Assembly: GCA_963836495.1 (NCBI GenBank) | Contig: CAWIJT010000003.1 | Coordinates: forward strand, 457,667 to 521,666 | Source: an uncultured Actinomycetota bacterium | GTDB lineage: Bacteria; Actinomycetota; Actinomycetes; Mycobacteriales; Mycobacteriaceae | Reading direction: 5' to 3' | Length of the DNA: 64,000 nt | Shown here: one piece after another, positions 7,446-51,350 of the stretch | How the letters are laid out: every line of letters starts with the position of its first letter | Position numbering within the stretch: the first letter of the stretch is position 1 | Notes under the pieces: generated by a model | Seen by the model: only the letters and a program-made list of their open reading frames with translations | Database searches by the model: none | Told to the model about the DNA's origin: nothing | Position numbers and translations under genes: made by a program

Positions 7446-7470
7446 TGACCAAGCCGCTACCCTTGTCCGC

Positions 7471-7560
7471 GGTGGCGTGGCAGAGCGGCCTAATGCACTC
7501 GCCTTGAAAGCGAGAGACGGCTAAAACCGTCCGGGGGTTCAAATCCCTCCGCCACCGCCA
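7471..7560 (+). tRNA. tRNA-Ser (TGA)
   Basis: GGTGGCG/CGCCACC acceptor stem, anticodon arm ctcgc-ctTGAaa-gcgag, long variable arm, GTTCAAATC T-loop, encoded CCA. Confidence 0.97.
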
Positions 7561-7561
7561 T
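7546..7561 (+). repeat. Left 16-bp direct repeat (target duplication) CCTCCGCCACCGCCAT
   Basis: Identical to 8882..8897; immediately precedes the TGT end of the IS. Confidence 0.92.
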
Positions 7562-8881: not shown

Positions 8882-10146
8882 CCTCCGCCACCGCCATGTG
8901 AGGCCCGCGGGATCTCCAAGGCGATGCGGTCCATCAGCGCCCGGTACCGCTTGACCTCTGGATCGGTGCCCGGCTTACCGCTACTCACCAGACCGCCGGA
9001 CAGCTGACGCTCGGGGTCGGTCCAGATCACGCAGTTGGTCAGGCCGAGATGACCGAACGCCGCCGGCGCATTGCGGCCGAACGGACCCCACTTCTTGGTG
9101 CCCAACTGGAAGCCGGTGCCCCAGCGGGCCGGTTGCAGGCCCATCGCGAAATCAGGACGCAGACGCCGGCTTTCGCGCGCCGCGCCACGCAGAGTGTCCG
9201 GGCTCATCACCCGGACACCGTCGAGTTCGCCTCCGCGCCGCCATATTTCGGCGAATCGCGACATCTCGTCGGCGTTCGAGATGGTGTTGGACGACGGGAC
9301 GACGGTGGTAAGAAACATCGGCGTGTTGGTGATGGGGATCGTCTCGTAGACCGTCCCGCCGATGGCCTTGCGGAACAGGGCCGCAATCGGGGCCGGCAAT
9401 TGCTTGCCGGTCGCGTGGCTGGGCGCGACGAGTGGAATGTCGGTTGCAGCGACGCCAAAATTCGTCCAGCGAAATCCGAGCGGGTCGAGGATCTCGGTGG
9501 CCAGGATGTCGCGAATGTCCTTGCCTGCGGCCGCAAATACGATTTCGCGCATCAGCGGACCCCAGGTCAGTGCGTGATAGATGTGCACCAGCCCGGGTCG
9601 GTACACCGGTCGCAGCTTGCCCAACTGTTCGCGGGCGTACGCGTGGTCATCGGCCCGTTTGAGATCGGGTCGCGGGCCGGTCGGAAACGGGACGCCCGCG
9701 CTGTGCGTCATGACATGCCGGATCGTGGTCCGGTGCTTGCCGTGACTGGTGTAGGTCGGCAGGTATTCGCAGACCCGGTCGTCGAGTGAGAACACGCCGC
9801 GCTCGATCAGCATGTGCGCGACTGTTGCGGTGATCGCCTTGGCCGAGGAGTAGACGCAGAACGGCGTATCGGTCTGGACCGGGACCTTCTCGGCGTCCGG
9901 CGGGTCGGTGGGGGCGTTGCCCCAACCGTGCCCGATCGCCCGGTTGAGGACGACCTTGCCGTTGCGGCGCAGGCAGAGCTGGATGGCCGGATGCAGCCCT
10001 GCTTGATACCAGTGCCGGGCCGCCTGCCAGATCCGTTCGACGGCTGCGGGGTCGACCTCGGAGTGGTCCTCGTCGCCGATCGCGGTGACGGCGTCGAGGT
10101 CAGCCGGGACGCGAATTCTGCCCTGCAAGTCTGGCTGGCCGGTCAT
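8875..10146 (-). CDS. lipE: Beta-lactamase-family esterase/lipase LipE (Rv3775-like)
   Basis: Start re-set to ATG 10146; SxxK motif (YSSAK), HSAG and FGHLG motifs; the stop codon lies inside the IS end. Confidence 0.88.
   Translation of the reverse strand: MTGQPDLQGRIRVPADLDAVTAIGDEDHSEVDPAAVERIWQAARHWYQAGLHPAIQLCLRRNGKVVLNRAIGHGWGNAPTDPPDAEKVPVQTDTPFCVYSSAKAITATVAHMLIERGVFSLDDRVCEYLPTYTSHGKHRTTIRHVMTHSAGVPFPTGPRPDLKRADDHAYAREQLGKLRPVYRPGLVHIYHALTWGPLMREIVFAAAGKDIRDILATEILDPLGFRWTNFGVAATDIPLVAPSHATGKQLPAPIAALFRKAIGGTVYETIPITNTPMFLTTVVPSSNTISNADEMSRFAEIWRRGGELDGVRVMSPDTLRGAARESRRLRPDFAMGLQPARWGTGFQLGTKKWGPFGRNAPAAFGHLGLTNCVIWTDPERQLSGGLVSSGKPGTDPEVKRYRALMDRIALEIPRASHGGGGGV
8882..8897 (+). repeat. 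Right 16-bp direct repeat CCTCCGCCACCGCCAT
   Basis: Exact copy of the tRNA-Ser 3' end plus one base (7546..7561), directly after the terminal ACA. Confidence 0.92.
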
Positions 10147-10283: not shown

Positions 10284-10305
10284 TAAAATTCGAACATGCG
10301 TTCTA
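10284..10305 (+). promoter_or_regulatory. SigA -10 (TAAAAT) and LexA SOS box overlapping the DUF222 start (probable leaderless transcript)
   Basis: TAAAAT at 10284-10289; TCGAACATGCGTTCTA at 10290-10305 is one mismatch from TCGAAC-N4-GTTCGA; ATG at 10296. Confidence 0.75.
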
Positions 10306-11663
10306 GTGATCGGGAAGAGATCGTCGATGTGTTCGACGCGCTCCAGGCTGACCTCAAGCGCGCTCTGGATCTGTCGTTCGACGCCCTGACCACCCCCGAA
10401 CGGCTGGGCTTGTTGGAGTCGTGCGAGACGCTGCGCCGTCAACTGTCCGCCGTCGAGCACCCGCTGATCAACCAACTCGCCGAGCAAGCCAGCGAGACCG
10501 AGCTAGGCGGCAAACTCACATCGACGCTGGCCAACCGGTTATTGATCACCCGCGCCGACGCCGCCCGACGCATCCACGACGCCGCCGAGTTAGGCCAACG
10601 CACAGCCATCACCGGCGAAGCGCTGCAACCAGTTCTTCCCGCCACCGCCGCGGCCCAGCGTGACGGCCAGATCGGCGCCGGTCATGTCGCGGTGATCCGA
10701 AGTTTCTGGCACCGCCTGCCGGACTTTGTCGACATCGAGACCCGCGCCAAGGCTGAGGCGCAGTTGGCCCGGCTGGCCGGCGAGCATCGCCCCGATGAGT
10801 TGGGCAAGCTGGCCGACAAGCTGATGGATTGCCTGCACCCCGACGGCGACTTCAGCGACGTCGACCGCGCCCGGCGCCGCGGCGTCACCATCGGCAAGCA
10901 AGGCGTCGACGGGATGAGTCCGATCAGCGGATGGCTCAATCCGGAGGCGCGGGCGACGTGGGATGCGGTGTTCGCGAAGTTGGCCGCACCGGGCATGTGC
11001 AACGCCGACGACGACGAACCCTGCATCAGCGGCACACCATCGGCAGCCGCCATCCAGGGCGACACCCGCAGCGCCGGACAACGCCACCACGACGCCCTGC
11101 TCGCCGCCGCCCGCGCGCTACTGGCATCGGGTGAGTTGGGTCAGCACAACGGCCTACCCGCCTCCATCATCGTCACGACGACTTTGGACGAATTGGAGAA
11201 AGGCGCCGGCCGGGGCCTCACCGGCGGGGGCACGTTGTTGCCGATGTCTGATGTCATCCGGCTGGCCGCCCACGCTCATCACTACCTGGCCATCTTCGAC
11301 AAAGGTAAAGCACTGGCGCTGTATCACACAAAACGCCTGGCCTCACCAGCCCAGCGAATTGTGCTCTACGCCAAGGACCGCGGGTGTTCATTCCCCGGCT
11401 GCACCGTGCCCGGCTATCTCTGCGAAGTCCACCACGTCGACCCCTACGCCACCCACCCCGTCACTGACGTCAACACCCTGACGTTCACCTGCTGCCCCAA
11501 CCATAAACTCGCCGACCAAGGCTGGACCACCCGCAAAAACAGCCACAACGACACCGAATGGATCCCACCACCGCATCTAGACCACGGCCAGCCCCGCGTC
11601 AACACGTTCCACCACCCCGAGAAGTTATTACGGGACGACGGTGACAAGGATGAAGACCGCTGA
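10296..11663 (+). CDS. DUF222 / HNH endonuclease protein (13E12 repeat family)
   Basis: 455 aa; MRSSDREEI start, [19 protein letters not shown] and CCPNHK HNH region, [10 protein letters not shown] tail. Confidence 0.9.
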
Positions 11664-15416: not shown

Positions 15417-15551
15417 GTGTCGTTGGTGGCCACAGACGCCGAGCCGCGGTTGCGCTGCCTGATGGCGTGTGGCGCGAATGTCCCTCGCGCGCAGGTGCTT
15501 TGCAGCTCACGGGAGTCTACTGAGGTGGCAGGTATGGGACGCGTTCGATGA
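15417..15551 (+). CDS. Putative 44-aa small protein or leader peptide coupled to the flavoenzyme gene
   Basis: GAGGAGG at 15405-15411, GTG at 15417, MSLVATDAEPRLRCLMACGANVPRAQVLCSSRESTEVAGMGRVR; TGA overlaps ATG 15548. Confidence 0.35.
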   Translation: MSLVATDAEPRLRCLMACGANVPRAQVLCSSRESTEVAGMGRVR

Positions 15552-17365
15552 TCGAGATGGCCATCGTGGGGCTCGGCTCGTGGGGTCTGTGCGTCATGGA
15601 GCGGACGGTGAACCGGGCCAGGCAGTTGGGGACGCCCGTACGGCTGCACCTGATCGAGCCCGCTCAGCTGGGAGGCGGGGTCTACTCCACCGAGCAGCCC
15701 GACTTCCTGGTGCTCAACAACGCCTGCGGTCAACTCTCCCTCTACGCCGCTCCCGACGGAGACGCTCTTCCGCCGTACGCCGTGGGCCTACACGCGTGGG
15801 CAGTGGTCCGCGGCTACCGCTGGGTGGGTTACGAGTGCCGCATCGGCGCCGGCGGTGACCCCATCCTGCCCACCGACTACCTGCCGCGGCGGTTGATGGG
15901 CGAGTACCTCGCCTGGTTCTACGACACGCTGGTGTCCTACGCCCCGCCCAACCTGGAGATCGTCCGGCACTACGCGGCCGCCGTCGACATCTCTCCGGCT
16001 CTGCGAGGGCGCGAGGCGGTGCTGCTCGACAGCGGCACCACCCTCACCGTCGACCACGTCGTGCTCACTTCGGGCCACACCTTCAACGACGAGCCCGGTG
16101 CCGACGGCGGCGTGCACTACTTGCGGCCCTACCCCATCGACTACTTGGACCAGCGCGCCCCGGCCGGATCCTCGCTGGCAGTGGCCGGCATGGGGCTGGT
16201 CGGCTTCGACGTCCTGACCGCGCTCACTATCGGACGCGGCGGGACCTTCGAAGACCGGTGCGACCGGGCCGACCGCTTGCGTTACGTGCCCTCGGGCCAC
16301 GAGCCGACCATCACCCTCTATTCGCGCTCGGGGGCTCCGTACTGCGCCAAGTCGGCTACCGGTGTCGACCCCTACGGCCAATACCAGCCGGTGGTGTGCA
16401 CCCCTGAGGAGTTCGCGGCGCTCACCAACCCGGGTGCGTCGCCGTTGCGGCGGCACGTGGACTTCCGGGCCGAGCTTCTCCCGCTCGTCTTCGCCGAGAT
16501 GCAGGCGCGCTACTACATCCAGGCCGCGTCGCTGGCCGGCGGCGACGTGGAGTCGACCGAGGTCCGCAACGTCCTCCGCCAAGGCTGGGTCGACGGGTAC
16601 TACGAGAAGGCAGTCGACGTTCTCGAGCCGCGCTACGGGCGCTTTGACCCGGCCACCCACCTCTTCGCCGGGGCAGACCGCCACTACACGTCGGCCGCCG
16701 ACTATCAGGGCCAGGTTTACGACATGATCGAGGACGACCTCACCGAGGCTTTGCGGCCCGGAGGGAGCGCGGTCAAGGCCGCCCAGGAGGTGCTGCGGAT
16801 CCTGCGGGACCAGCTGCGTTCGGTCATCGAGTTCGGTGGCCTGTCCCTCGACTCCTACGTCGAGTTCCAAGCCAACGTCCGGGGCCGGATCAACCGGCTC
16901 GAAGCGGGCGTGCCACCCATGCGCTCCCAGCAGCTACTGGGGCTGCTCGACGCCGGGGTGGTGCGCATTCCGCTCGGACCGAGCCCACAGGCGGTCGCCT
17001 GCCATGAGGGCGTCCGCCTGAGTTCCACGGTGCTCGACGAGCCGACAGCGGTGACGGCCGGCGAGGTGGTGCGGGGCTATCTCGACATGCCCTCGCTGGC
17101 CCGGTCTGGCTCGCCTCTGCTGAACCGCCTCTACGCCAAGGGCAGGCTGACCCAGCTCAGCTACGGTGACACCCCCGTGGGCAGCGTGGCCATCAACGAG
17201 GACTTCCACCCCTACGACACCGAGGGCCGGCTCCAGCCCAACCTCTCGGTGCTGGGCGTGCTCACCGAGGGGGTCCGTTACTTCACCCACTATCTGCCCT
17301 CGCCGCGCAGCCGCCTTCGGGCCGTCTACGACGCCCAGGCGTGCGTCGAGGCCGTGATCGGCTGA
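15548..17365 (+). CDS. FAD/NAD(P)-binding protein, CreE/FzmM-like flavin-dependent N-oxygenase family
   Basis: 605 aa; GLGSWG FAD motif, LVLNN, YLPRRLMGEYL, DHVVLTSGH, GMGLVGFD, SRSGAPY, GVPPMRSQQLLGLLDAGVV and GVLTEG follow the motif order of this family. Confidence 0.75.
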   Translation: MIEMAIVGLGSWGLCVMERTVNRARQLGTPVRLHLIEPAQLGGGVYSTEQPDFLVLNNACGQLSLYAAPDGDALPPYAVGLHAWAVVRGYRWVGYECRIGAGGDPILPTDYLPRRLMGEYLAWFYDTLVSYAPPNLEIVRHYAAAVDISPALRGREAVLLDSGTTLTVDHVVLTSGHTFNDEPGADGGVHYLRPYPIDYLDQRAPAGSSLAVAGMGLVGFDVLTALTIGRGGTFEDRCDRADRLRYVPSGHEPTITLYSRSGAPYCAKSATGVDPYGQYQPVVCTPEEFAALTNPGASPLRRHVDFRAELLPLVFAEMQARYYIQAASLAGGDVESTEVRNVLRQGWVDGYYEKAVDVLEPRYGRFDPATHLFAGADRHYTSAADYQGQVYDMIEDDLTEALRPGGSAVKAAQEVLRILRDQLRSVIEFGGLSLDSYVEFQANVRGRINRLEAGVPPMRSQQLLGLLDAGVVRIPLGPSPQAVACHEGVRLSSTVLDEPTAVTAGEVVRGYLDMPSLARSGSPLLNRLYAKGRLTQLSYGDTPVGSVAINEDFHPYDTEGRLQPNLSVLGVLTEGVRYFTHYLPSPRSRLRAVYDAQACVEAVIG

Positions 17366-17369
17366 GCAC

Positions 17370-18644
17370 ATGACGGACTCCATGACCGGACGGGCGCGGC
17401 CGTTAGTGGCGGTGGGCTACGGTCCGCGCTGCGTTCCCGTGATGCAGCTGGCCGAAGCCGCCGCCGGCGTCTGCGACCTGCTCTGGATGATCGACACCGC
17501 CGTGCCGGGCATGAGCGAGATGACTGATCTGCTCAACCGGTTCGGGCCCGTCGTCGACCTCAAGGGCATGAGCGCCGAGCAGGCGATCAAGATCATGGTC
17601 GACTGGGAGCCAGACGGCATGACCACCTACCTCGACGCCGGGATGGTCGAACTGGCCTGTGTGGCAGAGGGACTGGGTCTTCCCTTCCACAGCCCGGCGA
17701 CCGCCGCCGCCCTCACTGACAAGGCCCGCCAGCGTCGCGCCATGGCCGACGCCGGAATCGATATGCCGCCCTGCCACCTCATCCGCCCCGACCAGTCCGA
17801 GCAGGAGCTCGGCGCCGTCGAGGCCGAGGTGGGGTGGCCGGCCGTGCTCAAGCCCCGCTCGGCTCAGGGCAGCCGCTACACCTTCCTGGCCCACGACGGT
17901 CCGGAGCTCCAGATGCTGCTCGACACCCTCGGGCCGAGTCGTCCCGAGATGGTTCTCGAGGGCTACCTGGCCGACGATCCGGCCCGCGCCGGCGACCCCT
18001 ACGCCGGCTATGTGTCCGTCGAGAGCCTGGTCGCCGACGGCGCCATCAGCCACCTGGCCCTGACCGGCCGCTTCCCGCCCGCCGGAAACTTTCGCGAGAC
18101 CGGGTTCTTCATCCCCGCAGCTCTCGACGCAGCGAGTCGCGAAGCCGTCCTGGACCTGGCCACCCGGGCGATCGACGCACTGGGGGTGCGCACCGGTTGC
18201 CTGCACACCGAAATCAAGTTCACCCCCGCCGGGCCCCGCATCATCGAGGTCAACGGACGACTGGGCGGCGGTGTGCCCGAGATGCTGGAGCGGGCCGCCG
18301 GGATCAATCTCCTCGACCTCACCTTGCGGGTGGCCCTCGGCGAGCCGCTGTCGGTCGCCGGGCCCGTCGCCACCGACCGCATCGGCTACCGATTCTTCCT
18401 CCAGCCGCCGACCGTCTCGGCCACGGTGACAGCCATCGAGGGCATCAACGACTTCAGCGACCGCCCCGTGGTCGACACGGTGAGCGTCCACCAGGGCCCG
18501 GGTGCCGCCCTCGACTGGCGGGACGGCTCCGGCAACCACATCGTGGCCGTGGTCGGCTCGACCGACGACGAGGAGCAGTTGCAGGCCGCCTACCGGCTGC
18601 TGCACCAGGAAGTCACGGTCACCTATACCGACGTGAGGTACTGA
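17370..18644 (+). CDS. ATP-grasp ligase (L-amino acid ligase-like)
   Basis: TDKARQR, LKPRSAQGS, LEGYL, VSVES and HTEIK..GPRIIEVNGRLGG motifs. Confidence 0.85.
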   Translation: MTDSMTGRARPLVAVGYGPRCVPVMQLAEAAAGVCDLLWMIDTAVPGMSEMTDLLNRFGPVVDLKGMSAEQAIKIMVDWEPDGMTTYLDAGMVELACVAEGLGLPFHSPATAAALTDKARQRRAMADAGIDMPPCHLIRPDQSEQELGAVEAEVGWPAVLKPRSAQGSRYTFLAHDGPELQMLLDTLGPSRPEMVLEGYLADDPARAGDPYAGYVSVESLVADGAISHLALTGRFPPAGNFRETGFFIPAALDAASREAVLDLATRAIDALGVRTGCLHTEIKFTPAGPRIIEVNGRLGGGVPEMLERAAGINLLDLTLRVALGEPLSVAGPVATDRIGYRFFLQPPTVSATVTAIEGINDFSDRPVVDTVSVHQGPGAALDWRDGSGNHIVAVVGSTDDEEQLQAAYRLLHQEVTVTYTDVRY

Positions 18645-18645
18645 G

Positions 18646-19581
18646 GTGGGCGTTCAATTGGCCGAGGGACCAGCGCGGTGGACGTGTGCCCTGGTCAACA
18701 ACATGCCCGACTCCGCATTTTGCGCCACCGAGCGACAGTTCGTCGGCCTGCTGGAGGCCGGGTCCGGCGGCGACACGCTCGCCCTGACCCGACACACGAT
18801 GGCCGGGGTGCCGCGGGGCGAGCGGATTGCGTCCCAGATCGCCGCCGAATACCGACCCCTCGAGGACATCTTCACCGAACCCCCGGACCTGCTGGTGGTC
18901 ACCGGTGCCAACCCGATCGAGTCCCGTATCGAAGACGAGCCCTACTGGGCTGATCTGCACGGTCTGCTGAAGTGGGGTAGCGAGAACGTGCCGGCGATGG
19001 TGCTGTCGTGCCTGTCCGCCCACGCCGCGCTGGCCGTCTTCGACGGTGTCGAACGGACCACGCTGCCGGCCAAGTGCACGGGAGTGTTCGCCCAGGAGGC
19101 CGACCGGACTCACCCGCTGGCCGCCGGGCTCTACGGTTCCGTCGTCCTGCCGCATTCGCGGCTGAACACCGTGCCCCTCGAGGCAGTGGTCGACGCGGGC
19201 TACTCGGTGGCGCTGCAGTCAGGGCAGGTCGGGTGGAGTGTGGTCACGAAGACGGTAGGTGAGTGCGAGGTCATGCTGGTGCAGGCCCATCCCGAGTACG
19301 ACCCGTCGAGCCTCGTCCGCGAATACGTCCGGGATGTACGCCGCTACGTCGGCCACTTGCGCGACGAGTTGCCTTGTCTACCAACAGATTGCGCGACCGG
19401 TCCAGATTGGGATGCGCTCTGCCGGATGCATGCGCGGGTGGTCGGCGGCGAGCGGAACGCAGACCTGGTAGCCGCGTTCCCGTTCGACGACATCTGCGTC
19501 CGGGCTCCCTGGCCGTGGCGGGGGACGGCCCAGCGCCTGTACGCCAACCTGTTGGGCACTATCCCGAGAAGGAGCGCCTGA
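18646..19581 (+). CDS. metA: Homoserine O-acyltransferase of the MetA (GATase-like) fold
   Basis: LVNNMPD..ATERQF, VTGA..EDEPYW, nucleophile SCLSAHA, QAHPEYD His-Glu dyad. Confidence 0.85.
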   Translation: MGVQLAEGPARWTCALVNNMPDSAFCATERQFVGLLEAGSGGDTLALTRHTMAGVPRGERIASQIAAEYRPLEDIFTEPPDLLVVTGANPIESRIEDEPYWADLHGLLKWGSENVPAMVLSCLSAHAALAVFDGVERTTLPAKCTGVFAQEADRTHPLAAGLYGSVVLPHSRLNTVPLEAVVDAGYSVALQSGQVGWSVVTKTVGECEVMLVQAHPEYDPSSLVREYVRDVRRYVGHLRDELPCLPTDCATGPDWDALCRMHARVVGGERNADLVAAFPFDDICVRAPWPWRGTAQRLYANLLGTIPRRSA

Positions 19582-19584
19582 GCC

Positions 19585-20871
19585 ATGCACGACGAGACCA
19601 TCGCCATCCACGGCGGCTACACATCCGACGGGACGCGGGCCGTGGCGGTCCCCATCTACCAGACCGTCGCCCACGACTTCATCGACGCGGCCCACGCCGG
19701 TGCCGTGCTCGACCTGGAGACGCCGGGCTTCCACTACAACCGGCTCAACAACCCGACGCTGGACGTCCTCGAACAGCGCATCTGCGCGCTCGAAGGCGGA
19801 ACGGCGGCCCTGGTGGTGGCCTCCGGCATGGCCGCCGTCAGCTACGCCATCCTGACCGTGGCGGCGGCCGGCTCGAACATCGTGGTGGCTCCCCAGCTCT
19901 ACGGGGCCACCTTCACCTACTTCGCCCACGTGCTGCCCACGCTGGGCATCGAGGCGCGCTTCGCCGTCGACGACCGTGCCGAGTCGATCGCCCCGCTGAT
20001 AGACGAGAACACCCGCGCGGTGTTCTGCGAGACGATCGGCAACCCGGCCGGCAACATCGTCGACCTCGAGGCCGTTGCCGAGGTGGCCCACGCGGCCGGC
20101 GTGCCCCTCATCGTCGACAACACGGTGGCCACGCCGCTGATGCTCAAGCCCTTCGAGCACGGCGCCGACGTGGTCGTCCACTCGCTGACCAAGTTCGTCG
20201 GCGGCCACGGCACTACCCTCGGCGGAGCCATCGTGGACGGCGGCCGGTTCCCGTGGGCCGACCATCCTGACCGCTTCCCCAATTTCAACCAGCCCGAGCC
20301 CGCCTTCCACGGCGTCGTCTTCGCTCGCGACTTTCCCGAGCGGCCCTTCACCGTGCGGGCCCGCTCCACCCAGCTGCGCAACAGTGGCGCCACCCTGTCG
20401 CCCTTCAACGCCTTCCTGCTCCTGCAGGGCCTCGAGACGATGGCGGTGCGGCTCGAGCGTCACGAGGCCAACGCCCGGGCCGTGGCCGAATACCTGGCCG
20501 CCGATCCCCGGGTGGCCTGGGTGAGCTTCGCCGGCTTCCCCGACCATCCGTATCACCACCTGGTCGAGCGCTACCTGCACGGACGGGTGCCGTCGATCAT
20601 CACCTTCGGGGTCGACGGCGGCTACGACGCCGGCCTGGCGTTCTTCGATGCGCTTCAGCTCATCAAGCGGCTGCTCAATCTGGGCGACGCCAAGTCGCTG
20701 GCCATCCACCCGGCCTCGACCACCCACCGCCAGCTGTCCGGCGAGGAGCTGGCGAAGGCCGGTATCCGGCCGGAGACGATCCGGCTGTCCATCGGGATCG
20801 AGCACATCGACGACATCGTCGACGACATCGACCAGGCTTTAGACAAGGCCATGGCTGGCCGGGTCCACTGA
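19585..20871 (+). CDS. metY: O-acylhomoserine sulfhydrylase / aminocarboxypropyltransferase (MetY family)
   Basis: VPIYQT, YNRLNNPT, ETIGNP, DNT, PLP-Lys motif HSLTKFVGGHG, IHPASTTH, RLSIGIE. Confidence 0.9.
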   Translation: MHDETIAIHGGYTSDGTRAVAVPIYQTVAHDFIDAAHAGAVLDLETPGFHYNRLNNPTLDVLEQRICALEGGTAALVVASGMAAVSYAILTVAAAGSNIVVAPQLYGATFTYFAHVLPTLGIEARFAVDDRAESIAPLIDENTRAVFCETIGNPAGNIVDLEAVAEVAHAAGVPLIVDNTVATPLMLKPFEHGADVVVHSLTKFVGGHGTTLGGAIVDGGRFPWADHPDRFPNFNQPEPAFHGVVFARDFPERPFTVRARSTQLRNSGATLSPFNAFLLLQGLETMAVRLERHEANARAVAEYLAADPRVAWVSFAGFPDHPYHHLVERYLHGRVPSIITFGVDGGYDAGLAFFDALQLIKRLLNLGDAKSLAIHPASTTHRQLSGEELAKAGIRPETIRLSIGIEHIDDIVDDIDQALDKAMAGRVH

Positions 20872-20878
20872 GCGCACC

Positions 20879-22657
20879 ATGCCATTGACGACTGAGGTGT
20901 CGACGTATTTCGGACCGCCTGATTCACCCTTGTTCGGGGTGGTGCATCTGCCGGTCGACAACCAGATCAGGGGCGGGGTACTGATCTGTGGTTCGCTCGG
21001 CAAAGAGGGGATGGACAGCGTCCGGCTGCAACGAATCCTCGCCGACAGCCTGGCCCGCCGCGGTTTCGGCGTGCTGCGTTTCGACTATCTGGGCTTGGGC
21101 GATTCCGCGCACTCGCAGGTCCGCGATGATGCGGTGGCCAACTGGGTGGCGAGTGTGGGCCACGCACGCGACTACCTCGCGCTGATCGGCGCGCAGTCGG
21201 TGACCGCGATCGGCGTACGTGCCGGCTGCCTGATCCTCGACGAGTACCTGGCCCGGTCCCTTGCCGAATCCCACCCGGTCGACTCCGTGGTCTACCTCGA
21301 TCCCGCCGGAACGGGCAGGCGCTATCTGCGTGAGCACACCACGCTGTTCCGCTTGTCGGCGGGGGAGGACGCCGCGACGCCCGGTGAAGTGTTGATCATC
21401 GGCGGCCGGTTCAGTGACCATGCCGCCGCAGAGTTCGCCGGGCTGCGGATGCATCCCAATCCGGTAAGCGTCGCGGATGTACTTCTGGTGGGGCGACCGG
21501 GCGATACCGACAAGCACGTCACTGCTCTGGCGTCGGCCGACGGCGTTGATGCGATCACCACCGGCGGTCTGGCTGAATGCGCACATCCGCTGGCGATACC
21601 GCTACCGATCCCTGTCACCGCGGTCGATTCGATCATCGACTGGATCGACGACAAGGTTCCCACTGGTACCCGTCAGGCCACACCCCGGTACGTGACCACG
21701 GTGACGATGCCGGCAGAAGGGCCCGACGGCGTCGACGTCGTCGAAAGCATCGAACGGATCGAGCCGAACGGCCTGTTCCTCATCCGCACGCAGCCCGAAC
21801 GCTCCAGCAGCGCGCCGGTGAAGACCGTGTTGTTCTTCGTGTCGGCCCACGACTTGCACGTAGGACCCGCCCGGGAATGGGTCGAATTGTCGCGTCGCGT
21901 TGCAGCGGCCGGGTCACCGGCGGTGCGCTGGGACCCGTCAGGACAGGGCTTGTCGGGACCGATCAGGCGGAACCCTTGGCGCACAGTGTATTCCAAGGCC
22001 GACATCACCGACTCGATAGCGGTGGCCGAACATGCGCGCCGAGGCGGCGGCGAACTCCAGCTTGTCGGAATCTGTTCCGGCTCGTGGTACGCCGCTCACG
22101 CCGCCCGCAGCATCGGTGGACAGTCGGCGATCCTGGTCAACCTGGTGGCGTGGAATTGGCGCGTCACCCCCACCGTGATGGAGCAGCAGTATTTCCGGCA
22201 GAAAACGCTGACTGCGCATGCGGCCAACGACAGCGGCGCCGGCCGCTCCGAATCACAGTGGACGATGCGCCTCGAAGCACGTATCCGTCTGGGACAGAAC
22301 CAGACGAAAAGCCTTATGCACAAGCACCTCCCGCGGTTCGTCCTGCGGGTGTTGAGCTGGATCGGGCTGATATTTCTGCCGGAGGATGTTCTGACCACGC
22401 TTGCCCGCCGTGGAACCGACGTGACGGTGATCGCTTGCCCCGAGGACGCGGAGCAGTTCACTGCCAAAGGCGGTCGGGCAGCGCTTGACCGGCTGCAGTG
22501 GACGTCGCAGCCGCCCCGCCTGATCACCACACCCACCGGCGATCATTCGGCCAATCACCCGGCGATATTGGCAGCGATCCGCGCCGCCGTTCTTCCGGCA
22601 GCAGCTACCTCGTCTAGTGCTGAGCGCGATCATGACCAGATAGGAGTCGGCGCTTGA
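20879..22657 (+). CDS. Tandem alpha/beta-hydrolase-fold protein (hydrolase-2/hydrolase-1-type fusion), putative acyltransferase
   Basis: N domain RFDYLGLGDS with elbow GVRAG (no Ser); C domain RWDPSGQGLS with elbow GICSG and late GDHS. Confidence 0.7.
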   Translation: MPLTTEVSTYFGPPDSPLFGVVHLPVDNQIRGGVLICGSLGKEGMDSVRLQRILADSLARRGFGVLRFDYLGLGDSAHSQVRDDAVANWVASVGHARDYLALIGAQSVTAIGVRAGCLILDEYLARSLAESHPVDSVVYLDPAGTGRRYLREHTTLFRLSAGEDAATPGEVLIIGGRFSDHAAAEFAGLRMHPNPVSVADVLLVGRPGDTDKHVTALASADGVDAITTGGLAECAHPLAIPLPIPVTAVDSIIDWIDDKVPTGTRQATPRYVTTVTMPAEGPDGVDVVESIERIEPNGLFLIRTQPERSSSAPVKTVLFFVSAHDLHVGPAREWVELSRRVAAAGSPAVRWDPSGQGLSGPIRRNPWRTVYSKADITDSIAVAEHARRGGGELQLVGICSGSWYAAHAARSIGGQSAILVNLVAWNWRVTPTVMEQQYFRQKTLTAHAANDSGAGRSESQWTMRLEARIRLGQNQTKSLMHKHLPRFVLRVLSWIGLIFLPEDVLTTLARRGTDVTVIACPEDAEQFTAKGGRAALDRLQWTSQPPRLITTPTGDHSANHPAILAAIRAAVLPAAATSSSAERDHDQIGVGA

Positions 22658-23880
22658 CCGAGGACGCGATCAGCATCGGCGGTGTCGACCTCGCCGACCC
22701 GGACACCTACGCGTCGGGCATGCCCTTCGATGCGTTCCGGAAGCTCCGCGAGAACGCACCCGCGGCATGGCACCCGTACAAGGATGGGAGCAGGTTCCTC
22801 GCGCTCACCGGCTACGACGAGGTGTTCGCCGTGTCCCGCGACAGCACCACGTGGTCCTCGGAGGCGACGGGGGTGTACTTCGACGTGCCCGGTCCCGACG
22901 ACATCGCCGACCAGCGGGGCGTGATGATGTTGACGATGGATCCGCCGCGGCACACCGCCCTGCGCGCTCTGGTCAGCAAGGGCTTCAGGCCGCGTCAGGT
23001 AGCGAAGCTCAACGAGCGCATCACGGACATGGCGCGTGACGTGGTCGACAACGTCGTCGAGCGGGGCGAGTGCGACTTCGTCACCGACGTCGCCGGGGCG
23101 CTGCCCTCATACGTCATCGCCGAACTGCTGGGCATTCCGCTGGAAGACGGCTACCGGCTTTACGAGCTGACCGAGATCATGAACACCGGAGCGATAGGGG
23201 GCTCGCGCGCCATCCGGGCAGCCGCCGAGATGTTCGGGTACTCAAGGGAATTGGTAGCGCGCAAACGTGCGGATCCATGCGATGACATCGCGACATCGCT
23301 GCTGCATGCCGAGGTCGACGGACAGCGTCTCACCGAACGGGAGTTCAACTTCTTGTTCATGCTGTTGATCAATGCGGGCGGCGACACCACGCGTAACCTG
23401 GTCGCCGGCGGAATGTGCGCGCTGATGGACCATCCGCAGCAGCGGAGCAAGCTGGAGGCGGAGCCGTCGCTGCTGCCGATCGCGGTTGAAGAAATGCTCC
23501 GCTACGTCACCACGTTCATCGCGTTCTTCCGTACGGCCACGAAGGACACCGAACTACACGGGGTTCCTGTGCAGGAGGGCGAGCGGGTGGCGATGTTCTA
23601 CCCGTCGGCCAATCGGGATGAGACCCGCTTCGTCGATCCCGAGCGTTTCGACGTGACCCGTAAGCCCAACCCACACTTGGCCTTTGGCGGCGGCGGCGCC
23701 CATTTCTGCCTCGGCGCGAACCTCGCCCGGGTGGAGGCGGCGGCGCTGGTGTCGGAGGTGCTGAGCCGGATGAAGAACATGGAGTTGGCGGGGCCGATCG
23801 AGCGCATGCCATCGACGCTGATCAACGGTATCCACTCCATGCCCGTCCGGTTCACCCCTGGCCGACGCGCCTGCGCGTAG
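22654..23880 (+). CDS. Cytochrome P450 (CYP124/125/142-like)
   Basis: TTG start overlapping the upstream TGA; MDPPRH, I-helix AGGDTT, EEMLR (ExxR), heme motif FGGGGAHFCLG. Confidence 0.95.
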   Translation: MTEDAISIGGVDLADPDTYASGMPFDAFRKLRENAPAAWHPYKDGSRFLALTGYDEVFAVSRDSTTWSSEATGVYFDVPGPDDIADQRGVMMLTMDPPRHTALRALVSKGFRPRQVAKLNERITDMARDVVDNVVERGECDFVTDVAGALPSYVIAELLGIPLEDGYRLYELTEIMNTGAIGGSRAIRAAAEMFGYSRELVARKRADPCDDIATSLLHAEVDGQRLTEREFNFLFMLLINAGGDTTRNLVAGGMCALMDHPQQRSKLEAEPSLLPIAVEEMLRYVTTFIAFFRTATKDTELHGVPVQEGERVAMFYPSANRDETRFVDPERFDVTRKPNPHLAFGGGGAHFCLGANLARVEAAALVSEVLSRMKNMELAGPIERMPSTLINGIHSMPVRFTPGRRACA

Positions 23881-23893
23881 CGACCGCGCCGGA

Positions 23894-24520
23894 TCAGGCC
23901 GTGGCGGAACGCAACTCGACGCGCTGGCGAAGAAACGCGGCAAGGCGCAGCGGGATGGCAACGAGGCTCAATAGGGCGAACGGCAGATATTCGGCGGCAT
24001 AGAGCCACTGATGTGGCTTCTGGTTGAGTGCACCCAGCACGAAATCCCGGCCGAAGGCGATCAAGATGTACGTCGTGGCCAGGAAGAGTAAAGGCCGCCA
24101 CAGCCGCCCGAGTCTGCGTATTCCGATTCCGAAGGACAGCAGCACCAGCAGGCAGGTGAAGAAGAGGGCGACGAGGAAGAACCACAACAACCCGCCCTGC
24201 AGCGGAACCTGGCCGATGAGGACGCCGAGCCAGACGACCAAACCGATATGGGCCAGCAGCGCCGCAGCGAAGGCAAGGCCCGAGGCTCGCGCCTGACGAG
24301 CCAACCCGCCGAAGGCCGGCCCGAACAGGACGGCCAGCGCGCCGCCGGTATAGGAAAGCCAGAAGAAGAGAAATGACCAGCGGGCCGTGACGCGCACCCC
24401 GAGCCGAACGCTATCGAGACCGGTTCCGCGCACGACCAAGACGGCCACGGCAAGTGCGAGCGCACCGCCCAACGCGCCCGCTATCCACGCCCAGGTCGGA
24501 TCATGTCTGGGCGTCACCAC
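23894..24520 (-). CDS. Integral membrane protein (about 6 TM), weakly ferric-reductase-TM-like
   Basis: Hydrophobic helices; RVTARWSFLFF..SGLAFAAALLAH pattern; GTG 24520 has GGAG upstream. Confidence 0.55.
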   Translation of the reverse strand: MVTPRHDPTWAWIAGALGGALALAVAVLVVRGTGLDSVRLGVRVTARWSFLFFWLSYTGGALAVLFGPAFGGLARQARASGLAFAAALLAHIGLVVWLGVLIGQVPLQGGLLWFFLVALFFTCLLVLLSFGIGIRRLGRLWRPLLFLATTYILIAFGRDFVLGALNQKPHQWLYAAEYLPFALLSLVAIPLRLAAFLRQRVELRSATA

Positions 24521-24941
24521 ACTCCGCTCCGGCGTCGGGCGGATTGCAGACGACGAGGACAACGGCCATCGCGTGGCAATCGGCGTGCGAGAGCGACAAA
24601 GACGAGCTACGCCAGCCTTGCTGCTGCGCCCGCTCGGCGAGTGATCCGCTCAGCCGGAGTAGCGGCAGCGGACCATGTCGCGTCACCTCGATCTCGCGCC
24701 AGGGAAACGCCATGTCGGGTTCTGCGAATACCTTGATCACTGCTTCTTTGGCGGCGAATCGAGCCGCCAGTCGTTGCACCCGGTTATTGCCCTGGCAGTC
24801 GCTGATTTCGCCGGCCGTGAAGATTTTGCGCAGGTAGCTTTCCCCGAACGCGGCTAGCGAGTTCTGGACATCCTCGAGGGGCACGACATCGCATCCGACC
24901 CGAACGCGATGTCCGTCGACCTCACGTGGCGGGGCGATCAC
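24501..24941 (-). CDS. acpS: AcpS-type holo-ACP synthase (4'-phosphopantetheinyl transferase)
   Basis: VGCDVV, IFTAGE, LAARFAAKEAVIK and SLSLSH motifs; adjacent to an ACP. Confidence 0.88.
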   Translation of the reverse strand: MIAPPREVDGHRVRVGCDVVPLEDVQNSLAAFGESYLRKIFTAGEISDCQGNNRVQRLAARFAAKEAVIKVFAEPDMAFPWREIEVTRHGPLPLLRLSGSLAERAQQQGWRSSSLSLSHADCHAMAVVLVVCNPPDAGAECGDAQT

Positions 24942-25186
24942 GCAACCGCTTTGACCAGGCCTTGAACTACCTGCTCGATGTTGGCGACGGAAGCGAACGT
25001 GGACTTCTTCAGCACTTCGTCGGGGAACTCGATGTCGAAGGCATCCTCGAGGGCAAGCATGACGTCGACCGACGCATGCGACGTCAGGCCGAGGTCGTAG
25101 AGGTCGGCCTGATCGTCCACCTCGCGTGGATCCACCGCCATCCGGCCATGAGCAACTAAGACGTCACGAATTTGGTCCTGAATCAC
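24938..25186 (-). CDS. Stand-alone acyl/aminoacyl carrier protein (82 aa)
   Basis: C-terminal part of track ORF 24938..25759; GTG 25186 after GAGGAAAG; DLYDLGLTSHASVDVMLALEDAFDIEFPD carries the Ppant Ser. Confidence 0.88.
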   Translation of the reverse strand: MIQDQIRDVLVAHGRMAVDPREVDDQADLYDLGLTSHASVDVMLALEDAFDIEFPDEVLKKSTFASVANIEQVVQGLVKAVA

Positions 25187-26215: not shown

Positions 26216-27148
26216 GTGCCAGTACAGATGCTTCCGTTCCGGTTTGGCATACACGCCGCCGTCGCGCCGACGATGTCGGCGTGGCGGGATCAGGCCCGCA
26301 TGGCCGAGGATCTCGGTTACTCGGCGCTCTACATTCCTGACCACCTGGACGATCAGTTCGGGCCTCTGGTAGCCACGACCGTGGCCGCTGAAGCGACCTC
26401 CACCCTCCACGTGGGGCCGCTCGTGTTGAACAACGACATCCGCCACCCGGTGGTGTTGGCGAAGGAGATCGCCACGCTCGGCCTAGCGGCCGAGGGCCGG
26501 GTCGAGGTGGGTCTGGGGGCGGGCTGGCTCCGGACCGATTACGAGCAGGCAGGGATCGAGCTCGACGAACCGGCTGTCCGGGTGGACCGGCTGGCTGAGA
26601 GCCTCGCGATCATGAAGACGCTGTGGAGTGAGGGGAAAGCGACGTCAACAGGAACGCATTACACCGTGCGAGATGCCCGTTGTGATCCTCGCCCAACATC
26701 GCCACCTCGCGTCATCGTCGGAGGCGGAAGCAGGCGAATCCTCACGGTTGCCGGTCAACAAGCGGACATCGTGGGCGTGAACACCAGCCTGGCTTCGGGC
26801 CAGAAAGGCGGCGACCTGGCGAGCCAGGCCACCTTCGATCATTTCGACCGCTGCTTGGCATGGGTGCGCGAGGGAGCCGGTGACCGCTTCGATTCGATCG
26901 AGCTGCAGATCGTGGCCTTCGCCACCAGGGTCGTCGCCAGCAGTCGTGCTGCCGCTCGGACCGCAACGATGCTCGGCCTTCCGGGTGAGGATGCGCTGGA
27001 GCTTCCGATCGTCCTGATCGGCACCGAGGACGAACTGTGCGAGCGGCTTGTGCAGCGCCGCGAGAGGTGGGGCTTCACCAACATCGTCGTTCCCGGCGAG
27101 GCGATGGAGTCCTTCGCGCCGGTGGTCGCCCGGCTTGCGGGCACCTAG
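26216..27148 (+). CDS. F420-dependent LLM-class oxidoreductase (MSMEG_2516-like)
   Basis: AEDLGYSALYIPDH, LVLNNDIRHPVVLAKE, GLGAGW and VGGGSRRIL motifs; alternative ATG at 26228. Confidence 0.85.
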   Translation: MPVQMLPFRFGIHAAVAPTMSAWRDQARMAEDLGYSALYIPDHLDDQFGPLVATTVAAEATSTLHVGPLVLNNDIRHPVVLAKEIATLGLAAEGRVEVGLGAGWLRTDYEQAGIELDEPAVRVDRLAESLAIMKTLWSEGKATSTGTHYTVRDARCDPRPTSPPRVIVGGGSRRILTVAGQQADIVGVNTSLASGQKGGDLASQATFDHFDRCLAWVREGAGDRFDSIELQIVAFATRVVASSRAAARTATMLGLPGEDALELPIVLIGTEDELCERLVQRRERWGFTNIVVPGEAMESFAPVVARLAGT

Positions 27149-27152
27149 GCCG

Positions 27153-28673
27153 GTGACCTTGACCGGCGTACTCGGCGCGGTGCTGGACCACGCCGATCAA
27201 GCCCCGGATCGGCCCGCGGTCAAGGACCTGGATCGCGCGTTGACCCGGGGCGAATTGCGCGCCGCCGCTGGGCGAGTTGCCGCCGGCCTGGTTCAAAAAG
27301 GCGTCGAGCCCGGAGATCGGGTTGCGCTGCTGATCGGTAATTCCGTGGACTTCGTGGTGGCGGCGCTGGGTTGTCTGTGGGTGGGCGCCACGTTCGTTCC
27401 GCTGGCGATCAGCGATCCAGATCACCGCCGCGCACAGATCGTCTCGGACTGCCGGCCCGCACAGGTGATCACCGGCGGTCCGGACCACGCGGTGCCGTCG
27501 GGATTTCCCGTCGGCACACCGTGGACCACGGTCGCGGCCTTGAGCGCAGGAGGTGGGCCGCCGCCGACACCTGTAACCGGGCCGATCGCCTACATCATCT
27601 ATACGTCGGGTACGACCGGCATCCCCAAGGGTGTGCAGATCAAGCCGGAGGCGTTTTTCACGGCGGTCGAAGCATGCGCTGACGCGGTGGGATTGGCCGA
27701 CGATGACCGGTGCCTGTGCGTTTCGCCGGTGCATTTCGACGGGTCCTTTTCTGCCATCTTCCCCCCGCTCGTCCGCGGCGCCGCCCTCGTCATCCCCGAC
27801 CGGGAAGCCCTGCTTTTTCCGCGGAGGTTCTTCTCGATCGTCGCCGTCGAGGGGATCACGGCGACCAGCTTCTCTCCCAGCTATCTGCGGTTGCTGCGGT
27901 CCAGCGGCCGTCTGGCGGCATTGGCCGACACCCCGCTGCGCGTGATGGCGCTGGGCGGTGAAGCTCCGTCCACGGCCGATATCAGGGCGGTGTGGGCCGC
28001 CAGCCCGGGACTGCGAATAGTGAACCGCTACGGCCCGACCGAGACCACCATCGCGGTTGCCCACCTGGACCTGACCCCGGAGTTGCTCGACGCCGGGCTG
28101 GTACCGATCGGTCATCCTCATCCTGGGAGCTCGTTCTACCTCGTCGATGAGCACGGATGTCCAGTGGATCGTCCGGGAGTGGTGGGCGAGCTGTACGTCG
28201 GCGGCCCGCAGTTGATGGCTGGCTATCTGCACGATCCTGTGCATAGCGCGGCTGTGCTGCGGACGGACGTCATCGACGGGACCACTGTCTACCGGACCGG
28301 TGACCTGGTCTTCCGCGACGACCGGGGCAACTACGTCTACGCGGGCCGTTCGGACCGCGTCATCAAGCGACACGGTGTGCGGATGTCGCTGGTCGAAGTG
28401 ACCGAGGCGCTGGGTGGTACCGACGGGGTCGCGTCCGCGGCGTGCACGACCTTCGACCTGGATGGCGCTCTGGGGGTGGTCGCGTTCGTGGTGCCCAACG
28501 GCGAGCTCACTTCTCTCGCCGTCCGCCGGGCCGCCAGCGAGCGACTGCCGGCGACGATGCTGCCCGATCAATTCGTCGTGGTGGCCGACTTGCCGTTGAC
28601 GTCTTCCAGCAAGGTCGACGAGCGACGGCTGCTGGCGGAGGCCGGCTTGTCTGCACCGAACGCCGGGGCCTGA
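27153..28673 (+). CDS. Stand-alone amino acid adenylation (A) domain protein
   Basis: GTG 27153; A3 [15 protein letters not shown]4 HFDGSF, A5 NRYGPTE, A7 YRTGD, A10 SSKVDE; no C or T domain. Confidence 0.88.
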   Translation: MTLTGVLGAVLDHADQAPDRPAVKDLDRALTRGELRAAAGRVAAGLVQKGVEPGDRVALLIGNSVDFVVAALGCLWVGATFVPLAISDPDHRRAQIVSDCRPAQVITGGPDHAVPSGFPVGTPWTTVAALSAGGGPPPTPVTGPIAYIIYTSGTTGIPKGVQIKPEAFFTAVEACADAVGLADDDRCLCVSPVHFDGSFSAIFPPLVRGAALVIPDREALLFPRRFFSIVAVEGITATSFSPSYLRLLRSSGRLAALADTPLRVMALGGEAPSTADIRAVWAASPGLRIVNRYGPTETTIAVAHLDLTPELLDAGLVPIGHPHPGSSFYLVDEHGCPVDRPGVVGELYVGGPQLMAGYLHDPVHSAAVLRTDVIDGTTVYRTGDLVFRDDRGNYVYAGRSDRVIKRHGVRMSLVEVTEALGGTDGVASAACTTFDLDGALGVVAFVVPNGELTSLAVRRAASERLPATMLPDQFVVVADLPLTSSSKVDERRLLAEAGLSAPNAGA

Positions 28674-28677
28674 GCGT

Positions 28678-29403
28678 ATGCGCAGGACACCGTCATCGGC
28701 ATTCCCCGACGCGAGTCAGTCCAACTTCTGGATCAAGCTGGCGCCGAGCGTTGCGCGCCTGTTCGGGGCTTCCTCGATGCTGCGCACCAAGACCATCAAC
28801 GCCGCACAGATCGCCGATTTCGTCGATTGGCAGGTGCGTGTGTTCGGTGGTCGGCCAACGGTTTTCGCGCGACGGGAAATGCTGTGGGAACGGCTCGCGA
28901 AACGGCTGGATCCACACCGTCCACTTGTGGTGCTCGAGTTCGGCGTCGCCTGGGGTTATGCGACCAATTGGTGGTTGGGTCGATTGGGCGGGCGCGACGT
29001 GGTCTGGCACGGGTTCGACCGTTTCACCGGGCTGCCACGCGCCTGGCGTGAATACGCGCAGGGCACGTTCGATGCCGGCGGTAAGCCGCCCGCGATCGAC
29101 GACGGGCGGGTCCGTTGGCACGTCGGCGACGTCCAGGACACCCTCGGCGCAGTGGACCTGGCCGCCGCGCGGGATGCGCAGTGGCTGGTGCTGTTCGACA
29201 TGGACATCTACGAACCGACGGTCTTCGCCTGGGAGGCGATCAATGCTCACCTACGACCCGGGGATGTCATCTACCTCGATGAAGCGGTGGACCGCGACGA
29301 GCGCCGCGTTCTGGACGAGATGATCCTGCCGTCGATCGGTTGCGAGTCCGCCGGGGCCACGGCGTACGCGCTGGGTTTGGTTGTCACCCGCTCCGCTGGC
29401 TGA
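28678..29403 (+). CDS. Class I SAM-dependent O-methyltransferase, TylF/MycF-like
   Basis: LEFGVAWG, HGFDRFTGLP..W, VGDVQDTL and FDMDIYEPT motifs. Confidence 0.75.
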   Translation: MRRTPSSAFPDASQSNFWIKLAPSVARLFGASSMLRTKTINAAQIADFVDWQVRVFGGRPTVFARREMLWERLAKRLDPHRPLVVLEFGVAWGYATNWWLGRLGGRDVVWHGFDRFTGLPRAWREYAQGTFDAGGKPPAIDDGRVRWHVGDVQDTLGAVDLAAARDAQWLVLFDMDIYEPTVFAWEAINAHLRPGDVIYLDEAVDRDERRVLDEMILPSIGCESAGATAYALGLVVTRSAG

Positions 29404-51309: not shown

Positions 51310-51350
51310 TTCATTCCTCCTTGCGTACGTGGAAAGCATTGCCGGACGGC

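Follow-up and report, generated by a model that had tools for sequence, protein, structure and literature searches.

A conserved flavoenzyme-ATP-grasp-MetA-MetY cassette in a carrier-protein gene island of Mycobacterium and Acidimicrobiaceae: genomic context, sequence features and predicted pathway

Introduction

Several described systems resemble, in one or another of their reactions, the locus analysed here. The D-cycloserine pathway combines O-acylation of a hydroxy amino acid, replacement by an enzyme dependent on pyridoxal phosphate (PLP) and an ATP-grasp step, which are the roles of DcsE, DcsD and DcsG, respectively, with an N-oxygenation. Within the Cys/Met-metabolism PLP family, to which MetY, CndF and canavanine gamma-lyase belong, RtxA, LolC and Fub7 use non-sulfur nucleophiles. 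Dapdiamide-type clusters follow a mixed ligase logic (ATP-grasp, AMP-ligase, adenylation (A) domain and carrier protein) and include an Fe/2-oxoglutarate dioxygenase and a dedicated unusual amino acid, and certain exosortase-A-associated cassettes consist of an A domain, a carrier protein and hydrolases 1 and 2. In direct sulfhydrylation, MetA or MetX is paired with MetY, in which Arg270 is reported to form a wall that disfavours O-succinylhomoserine, excludes cysteine and enforces bisulfide as the nucleophile (PMC8191291). In the L-aspartate (Asp) N-hydroxylase of the FzmM/CreE family (structure 8cp2), Asp is contacted by Arg13, Arg276, Asn413, Arg416 and Arg577, and the N413E substitution abolishes Asp hydroxylation (PMC10404684). 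The present work concerns four genes at positions 15548-20871 of a 64,000-nucleotide stretch of DNA, hereinafter the window, from an uncultured actinomycetotal member of the Mycobacteriaceae (contig CAWIJT010000003.1, positions 457,667 to 521,666), which encode an FzmM/CreE-family flavin monooxygenase (hereinafter the flavoenzyme), an ATP-grasp ligase, a MetA-like acyltransferase and a MetY-type enzyme. The four enzyme families are well known; their widely distributed combination is uncharacterised, and no paper describing the quartet, or the trio of flavoenzyme, MetA and MetY, was found in literature searches.

Judged by analogy, the cassette would combine features of three schemes, namely direct sulfhydrylation, oxygenation of the FzmM type and ligation in the dapdiamide style. 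Compared with direct sulfhydrylation (7kb0), the window MetY has the same pocket bar one substitution and the MetA-like protein keeps the catalytic triad; however, the window copies are extra genes that lie in a biosynthetic island and are obligately linked, and in related loci sometimes fused, to a flavoenzyme gene. The likeness to the D-cycloserine pathway is one of reaction types, an analogy only. The Dcs enzymes comprise a MetX-type DcsE, a DcsD of the cysteine-synthase fold, the heme protein DcsA and the arginase-type DcsB, whereas the cassette has an HTS-family protein, a fold-type I MetY (Cys_Met_Meta_PP) and the flavoenzyme, and the ATP-grasp component alone is common to both. No arginase-type protein that could correspond to the hydroxyurea source of the Dcs pathway was detected in the scan of window proteins, in which a cytochrome P450 is the sole heme protein. 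Structures of Fub7 appear among the PDB matches of the window MetY at about 418 bits; unlike what might be expected of a user of non-sulfur nucleophiles, which RtxA, LolC, Fub7 and CndF are, its pocket is unchanged relative to the bisulfide-specific MetY. Finally, the dapdiamide and exosortase-A systems, to which the window shows weak NCBIfam matches (DdaF, hydr1_PEP, hydr2_PEP and ligase_PEP_1, all far under their cutoffs), have no counterpart of the building-block chemistry of the flavoenzyme, MetA and MetY.

Organization and conservation of the cassette

The cassette is encoded by four open reading frames (ORFs), given below with the evidence for each assignment.

15548-17365, + strand: FzmM/CreE-family flavin monooxygenase (PF13454), W12/D421/S585 subclade, 605 aa (profile and structure-sequence match)
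17370-18644, + strand: ATP-grasp ligase, probably of the L-amino-acid-ligase (LAL) type, 424 aa (profile and PDB matches; ATP-grasp-flavoenzyme fusion P0158)
18646-19581, + strand: divergent MetA-like acyltransferase of the HTS family, 311 aa (PF04204 and alignment)
19585-20871, + strand: MetY-type O-acylhomoserine aminocarboxypropyltransferase (PLP) with a canonical small-nucleophile pocket, 428 aa (TIGR01326 and alignment)

The gaps between these ORFs are 4, 1 and 3 nt, and the four genes form one operon, which bears out the initial annotation of a four-gene cassette with 1-4 nt spacing in its coordinates, its gaps and its enzyme families. The third-position GC content of the four ORFs is 0.83-0.93, with a GC content of 66% for the window, and the presence of orthologues in 80 species-level genomes identifies them as genuine genes. 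The operon runs past MetY, with a 7-nt gap to a double hydrolase gene, which in turn overlaps a P450 gene by 4 nt.

When genomes were scanned at one per species, the flavoenzyme was found to have 228 relatives, and the best 80 of these 228 (66-94% identity) were fetched with their neighborhoods; partners were counted within 7 kb of the flavoenzyme gene in the 60 loci of at least 20 kb. Both the MetA-like gene and the MetY gene are found near the flavoenzyme in 59 of the 60 loci, the ATP-grasp gene in 56 and an A domain gene in 51, and all three original partners (MetA-like, MetY and ATP-grasp) accompany the flavoenzyme in 55 of them. A carrier protein is present in 40 of these loci and a 4'-phosphopantetheinyl transferase (PPTase) in 32, a PaaK-like ligase recurs in many, and the P450 is found in only 6. 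Environmental Mycobacterium and Acidimicrobiaceae carry the cassette in no fewer than 80 species-level genomes, many of which are metagenome-assembled genomes (MAGs) from peat or soil. The window itself derives from an environmental Mycobacterium, and the best orthologues come from Actinomycetota MAGs, Mycobacterium sp. E787 and E796, M. paraense and M. paraterrae. The genes are arranged in two ways, namely flavoenzyme-ATP-grasp-MetA-MetY in Mycobacterium and flavoenzyme divergent from MetY-MetA-ATP-grasp in Acidimicrobiaceae, which implies that the linkage survives rearrangement. The association of the quartet is not due to chance, and the initial annotation, which had treated the four genes as a unit, is in this respect well founded.

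At greater distances, the flavoenzyme, MetA and MetY remain together (42-57% flavoenzyme identity; loci L084, L087, L088 and L089), and the ATP-grasp gene is absent from L087-L089. Given that these loci keep the trio, the flavoenzyme, the MetA-like protein and MetY constitute the deep core of the system, to which the ATP-grasp ligase is a frequent but dispensable addition. Locus L087 additionally encodes an A domain, a PaaK-like ligase, a carrier protein, a PPTase and a hydrolase, all amid polysaccharide genes (Bac_transf, GT2, Wzy_C). Two gene fusions were also found: the 976-aa protein P0126 joins the flavoenzyme to an HTS domain and is followed by a MetY gene, and the 968-aa protein P0158 joins a LAL-type ATP-grasp to the flavoenzyme. 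In the locus of the latter (L086, 73-7162), the genes that follow encode a free-standing Condensation-domain protein, a major facilitator superfamily (MFS) transporter and an enzyme of the AMP-binding type, and both MetA and MetY are lacking. Altogether, the flavoenzyme, the MetA-like protein and MetY form an obligate trio.

Sequence features of the cassette enzymes

The flavoenzyme matches PF13454 with 100.8 bits, and its residues 3-603 align over the full length of 8cp2 (E 1.3e-48), with the same three-domain fold. The catalytic Asn62 of 8cp2 and its Arg409, Arg412 and Arg416 are common to both enzymes, being kept as N57, R417, R420 and R424, which are invariant or nearly so in an alignment of 25 sequences. 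In contrast, four of the five Asp contacts are lost in the alignment: R13, R276, N413 and R577 correspond to W12, Q278, D421 and S585, and only R416 is kept, as R424. Because of this loss, the flavoenzyme, although it belongs to the FzmM/CreE family, is unlikely to use Asp as its substrate, and nitrite chemistry is unlikely for the same reason. The change of Asn413 to Asp, together with the loss of three arginines, suggests that an amino-acid head group, and not a second carboxylate, is bound at this site. More than 150 uncharacterised clusters at 50% identity are nearer to the flavoenzyme than 8cp2 is, and the 150 nearest score 208-707 bits against it, compared to 169 bits for 8cp2; Asp is found at position 421 in most of these clusters, and Trp12 is also present in the nearest clade. 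No fumarase/aspartase-type lyase domain of the CreD/FzmL kind was detected in any window protein scanned, nor is there a lyase-family gene in the gene lists of loci L001-L003 and L084-L089. The initial annotation had noted that the partner lyase is missing from the window and that nitrite production is therefore not implied; both statements hold, and the substitution of the Asp-binding residues by W, Q, D and S strengthens the second. A 464-aa window protein without a Pfam match was considered as a hidden CreD-type lyase and rejected, since it is a PaaK/F390-synthetase-like ligase.

The relatives of the flavoenzyme also occur in other contexts. All four sister-clade flavoenzymes with Trp12 examined in this regard (P0130, P0136, P0137 and P0145; 37-44% identity) are encoded directly upstream of a glutathione S-transferase (GST) gene (L094, 8001-11594; L095, 2999-5490; L090, 98-2562; L091, 21-2538), and the pairing of flavoenzyme and GST gives the impression of another module that is as yet uncharacterised. 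In L094, genes for a redoxin-like protein and a TauE-family protein lie nearby, and a 605-aa DAO-domain protein is encoded upstream in L095. These associations, with MetA and MetY (homocysteine) in one case and with GST (glutathione) in the other, hint that the Trp12 clade is tied to thiol or sulfur substrates. The gene for an Arg12-type relative, P0143 (40% identity; L092, 8001-11335), lies directly ahead of genes for a Sulfotransfer_5 protein and a LysE exporter; P0143 and the sulfotransferase may be a pair for N-hydroxylation and O-sulfonation.

The window MetY is a canonical member of its family by profile (578.4 bits against the 495.1-bit cutoff of the O-acetylhomoserine/O-acetylserine (OAH/OAS) sulfhydrylase model TIGR01326), with a score of 606 for the equivalog NF004757, below the cutoff of 790. 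It is 49.5% identical to MetY of T. maritima (TmMetY, 7kb0) and is the most conserved protein of the cluster (65-98%). Tyr58, Arg60, Tyr113, Asn161, Lys210, Arg270 and Arg405 are kept in the window MetY and in all 71 cluster copies, and so is Ile61, which completes the set of TmMetY residues Tyr58, Arg60, Ile61 and Arg270 that line the pocket for acyl group and nucleophile; Tyr113, Asn161, Lys210 and Arg405 are catalytic. Among the pocket residues named in PMC8191291, the sole difference in the window MetY is Asn118, which is Thr. Given the retention of the Tyr58/Arg60/Arg270 pocket, a bulky N-hydroxy nucleophile is disfavoured for the cluster MetY.

The MetA-like protein scores 151.3 bits against PF04204 HTS (cutoff 27) but falls under the equivalog cutoffs of NF003776 (257/358), TIGR01001 (97/495) and NF047918 (96/460), and it is shorter by about 35 N-terminal residues. 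In the alignment to 6mtg and the MG1655 gene (E. coli MetA numbering), it keeps the Cys142-His235-Glu237 triad and Arg193, Tyr238 and Arg249, which we take to be the homoserine- or acyl-binding residues of E. coli MetA; the kept residues lie in the stretches LSCLSAH, PHSR, HPEYD and YVRDV. The MetA motif NLMPKKIETENQ (NLMPxKxxTE), in contrast, takes the form NNMPD[SGA]AFxATERQ, which the window protein shares with every aligned cluster copy that is in frame, with a 2-residue insertion in the otherwise conserved motif and without Lys46 and Lys47. Lys47 reportedly has a catalytic role in MetA, a view that is said to go back to Ziegler et al. in 2007. The protein is probably an active acyltransferase, to judge from these residues, with an acceptor that is not certain. 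In some genomes the gene appears split or frame-shifted: two HTS pieces are present in L087 (7626-8668), and out-of-frame tblastn matches occur in L010 and L006, each at about 13100; all of these may be either pseudogenes or long-read assembly errors. Housekeeping homoserine acylation in mycobacteria uses the MetX family, which is unrelated to MetA.

The ATP-grasp ligase matches CPSase_L_D2 with 34.5 bits (cutoff 19.8), whereas its matches to ATP-grasp_4 (25.4 against 27) and LAL_C2 (22.5 against 29.4) are both under cutoff. Its best PDB matches are the L-amino-acid ligases BL00235 and BacD (E 1e-16 to 1e-13), with LAL matches down to 6e-9.

The surrounding gene island

In our reading, the quartet forms the heart of a pathway that is self-contained and depends on a carrier protein, encoded in an island of about 15 kb that is inserted next to the hisC2/echA21 core genes. 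The following further genes of the island were identified.

20879-22657, + strand: double alpha/beta-hydrolase protein, 592 aa, weakly similar to exosortase-A-associated hydrolases 1 and 2 (profiles)
22654-23880, + strand: cytochrome P450 (profiles)
23894-24562, - strand: conserved strongly hydrophobic protein, probably membrane-spanning, with no family match
24501-24941, - strand: AcpS-type PPTase
24938-25186 (start approximate), - strand: stand-alone carrier protein (PP-binding), 82-88 aa
25183-26130, - strand: PhyH-family Fe(II)/2-oxoglutarate dioxygenase
26216-27148, + strand: F420-dependent luciferase-like (LLM) oxidoreductase (TIGR03621, 295 bits)
27153-28673, + strand: stand-alone amino-acid A domain, code DGSSAGRIAK (likely start GTG at about 27153; mechanical ORF from 27048)
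29489-30883, + strand: PaaK/F390-synthetase-like adenylate-forming ligase, 464 aa (profiles)

The specificity code of the A domain, D-G-S-S-A-G-R-I-A-K, was extracted by hand from the core motifs. In the form DG[SGA]SAGRIAK, which includes Asp235, Arg322 and Lys517, it is kept from Mycobacterium to Acidimicrobiaceae, at overall identities of 48-88%. Asp235 and Lys517 indicate that the predicted substrate is an alpha-amino acid, and the Arg amid small pocket residues suggests that its side chain is anionic and long or bulky. Together with the ATP-grasp ligase and the PaaK-like ligase, the A domain brings the number of carboxylate-activating enzymes encoded in the cluster to three.

Other parts of the island vary. 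Window PhyH, LLM and the double hydrolase have no match in locus L003, which has the Acidimicrobiaceae gene order, and no or weak matches in most other Acidimicrobiaceae loci, which suggests a different tailoring of a common core. L003 itself has genes (7074-9745 and 15557-16741) for a 590-aa Amidohydro_3 protein, for an aldo-keto reductase and for an LLM oxidoreductase that is longer, at 394 aa.

Upstream of the operon lie genes for a HisC-like aminotransferase, a 246-aa protein and an enoyl-CoA hydratase, presumably the core genes hisC2-Rv3773c-echA21 (Rv3772-Rv3774), with a LipE-like gene beyond them. The aminotransferase and the enoyl-CoA hydratase were considered as members of the cluster and rejected, as these core genes, like that of the 246-aa protein, border the island on one side or the other depending on the genome. 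Genes for a transposase of the IS481 family, with rve and HTH domains, and for a DUF222 protein, at 7606-8784 and 10296-11663, interrupt what appears to be a conserved lipE-echA21-hisC2 neighborhood beside the island; the DUF222 gene occupies the same place in L035 and L039. Two ORFs at the island edge are of uncertain membership, namely a weak Methyltransf_24-like ORF at 28678-29403, found elsewhere only in L016, and an ICMT/PEMT-family membrane methyltransferase at 32188-32877, also present in L004, L010 and L044.

On the other side of the island, a glycopeptidolipid (GPL)-like locus with nonribosomal peptide synthetase (NRPS) and polyketide synthase (PKS) genes occupies positions 33036-63946.

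33036-45563, - strand: three-A-domain NRPS
45538-50085, - strand: one-module NRPS
50458-51762, - strand: methyltransferase
51351-62594, - strand: two-module type I PKS
62792-63946, - strand: glycosyltransferase

The two NRPSs together contain four A domains. A homologue of a window NRPS was found in only one of the 80 loci, that of the nearest relative (L004); the other 79 carry the cassette without it, and in M. paraterrae (CP092488.2, about 1,575,000-1,587,800) the cluster is compact, with no NRPS within 10 kb. We therefore rejected the possibility that the cassette feeds the adjacent NRPS, given that the four-module GPL-like locus is shared only by L004 and that the cassette has an A domain and a carrier protein of its own. 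For the same reason, incorporation of the product into the peptide of the large NRPS is not obvious: a stand-alone A domain, a carrier protein and a PPTase are at hand within the cluster.

Predicted pathway and alternative explanations

The cluster probably builds an oxygenated amino acid derived from homoserine or homocysteine on its own carrier protein, independently of the nearby peptide synthetases. As to the route, we tentatively prefer, at clearly less than even likelihood, a homocysteine branch dedicated to the cluster, with oxygenation of its product by the flavoenzyme and subsequent ligation and loading. Homoserine would be O-acylated by the MetA-like enzyme, and MetY would exchange the acyl group, by gamma-replacement, for a small nucleophile, most likely HS-, yielding L-homocysteine as a supply separate from the host methionine pathway. 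The flavoenzyme would then anchor the amino-acid head group and oxygenate a heteroatom of the MetY product, either sulfur or nitrogen; in the case of sulfur, oxygenation might proceed in successive rounds to the sulfinate or sulfonate, as the family does on nitrogen. The product would be ligated by the ATP-grasp enzyme and/or adenylated by the A domain and loaded onto the carrier protein, and the hydrolase-fold proteins would hand it on, possibly to a cell-envelope acceptor. Oxygenation would leave the side chain with a negative charge, in keeping with the Arg of the A-domain pocket.

Several points weigh against this homocysteine route. S-oxygenation by the flavoenzyme family is unproven, the characterised members being only amine N-hydroxylases, and it is possible that homoserine is not acylated by the MetA-like protein, which is very divergent (257 bits against 358) and without Lys47. 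Genes for sulfur supply are missing from the cluster, the order of the steps is not readable from sequence, and we know of no metabolite of the cluster. The argument from Arg270 comes from docking and superposition in one paper, not from mutagenesis, and the pocket comparison was made with TmMetY; Fub7 and CndF, which use bulky nucleophiles, may likewise keep this residue.

In a second scheme, the flavoenzyme product (a hydroxylamine, oxime or nitro compound) would itself replace sulfide as the nucleophile that MetY transfers onto O-acylhomoserine. The resulting amino acid, with a canaline-type N-O-C linkage or an N-alkylhydroxylamine group, would then be ligated or cyclised by the ATP-grasp enzyme, in a gamma-version of the D-cycloserine logic. 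This N-O coupling, which the initial annotation put forward and which we keep as a rival although we consider it unlikely, accords with the obligate trio and the flavoenzyme-MetA fusion and with the record of the flavoenzyme family, in which N-oxygenation is the only known activity (PMC10404684, PMC5215806); furthermore, a Cys/Met-family PLP enzyme is reported to cleave the N-O-C-gamma bond of canavanine (PMC9533460). The MetY sequences speak against it, however: all 71 keep Tyr58, Arg60 and Arg270, the wall that is said to exclude even cysteine, so that only nucleophiles of the size of NH2OH or nitrite would fit, and the cluster, which has no lyase, lacks an evident source of either; MetY is, moreover, the most conserved protein of the cluster, with an unchanged pocket, and the ATP-grasp enzyme is dispensable in L087-L089. 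Coupling of an N-hydroxy or nitro compound to homoserine is thus not confirmed, and only small N-O nucleophiles would be accommodated. Another use of a hydroxylamine is conceivable, in which the MetA-like protein would O-acylate the N-hydroxy product of the flavoenzyme and thereby activate the N-O bond for elimination or replacement by the PLP enzyme, with formation of a new heteroatom-heteroatom bond. The absence of Lys46 and Lys47, the 2-residue insertion in the motif and the retention of the acyl-enzyme triad in the MetA-like clade would be compatible with such a role, as would the direct fusion to the flavoenzyme in P0126 and the position of the P0143 flavoenzyme gene before a sulfotransferase gene, another possible hydroxyl activator; nevertheless, Arg193, Tyr238 and Arg249 are kept, MetY is canonical and the chemistry is without precedent, and we regard this scheme as very improbable. 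In more general terms, that the trio constitutes an undescribed route to a heteroatom-oxygenated or heteroatom-linked amino acid, be it a canaline-like aminooxy compound formed by gamma-replacement or a new N-X bond formed from a hydroxylamine acylated by the MetA-like enzyme, is in our assessment doubtful.

Alternatively, two building blocks could be made side by side: MetA and MetY would supply homocysteine, the flavoenzyme would N-hydroxylate another amino acid, and the ATP-grasp enzyme, the A domain and the PaaK-like ligase would link the two in a small peptide with thiol and hydroxamate groups, which might serve as a metallophore or an enzyme inhibitor, for instance. The canonical MetY pocket and the three carboxylate-activating enzymes are in line with this scheme, and so is the context of the P0158 fusion, with its Condensation-domain, MFS and AMP-binding neighbors, which implies that elsewhere the flavoenzyme acts together with ligases and that ordinary amino acids are their substrates. 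The strictness of the trio and the fusion of flavoenzyme and MetA, however, suggest a closer metabolic link than co-assembly, and the trio persists without the ATP-grasp enzyme in L087-L089; accordingly, we do not consider joint assembly likely. A further suggestion, also made in the initial annotation, is that MetA and MetY merely raise the supply of methionine (Met) and S-adenosylmethionine (SAM) for the methyltransferases of the neighboring lipopeptide cluster. Methyltransferase genes do lie in the window, at 28678-29403, 32188-32877 and 50458-51762, but these methyltransferases recur in only 1-3 loci and the window NRPS in one, as against 59 of 60 loci in which the flavoenzyme has MetA and MetY beside it, the MetA-like protein is fused to the flavoenzyme in P0126, and no methionine synthase or SAM synthetase was found among the window genes. 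Given that the cassette does not travel with the PKS/NRPS or methyltransferase genes of the window, and that 79 of the 80 loci and M. paraterrae are without the NRPS homologue, this suggestion fails and its residual probability is minimal. Overall, the initial annotation stands with regard to the functional unit and the lack of implied nitrite production, MetY-mediated coupling is not confirmed, the boost of Met/SAM supply is refuted, and the homocysteine branch followed by oxygenation remains our preferred, if tentative, reading.

Concluding remarks

Working out the cassette would reveal what a large branch of the FzmM/CreE family, so far uncharacterised, does; within this family, the flavoenzyme has a pocket that differs from that of the only solved family member, and the pathway is discrete and testable. 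It would also show the use of a MetA/MetY pair that is biosynthetic rather than housekeeping. Possibly, a novel amino acid containing sulfur or an N-O group, or a novel modification of the mycobacterial cell envelope, would come to light; if true, the canaline-like or N-X-bond route would amount to a new logic of biosynthesis, one with a wide distribution among Actinomycetota of peat and soil.

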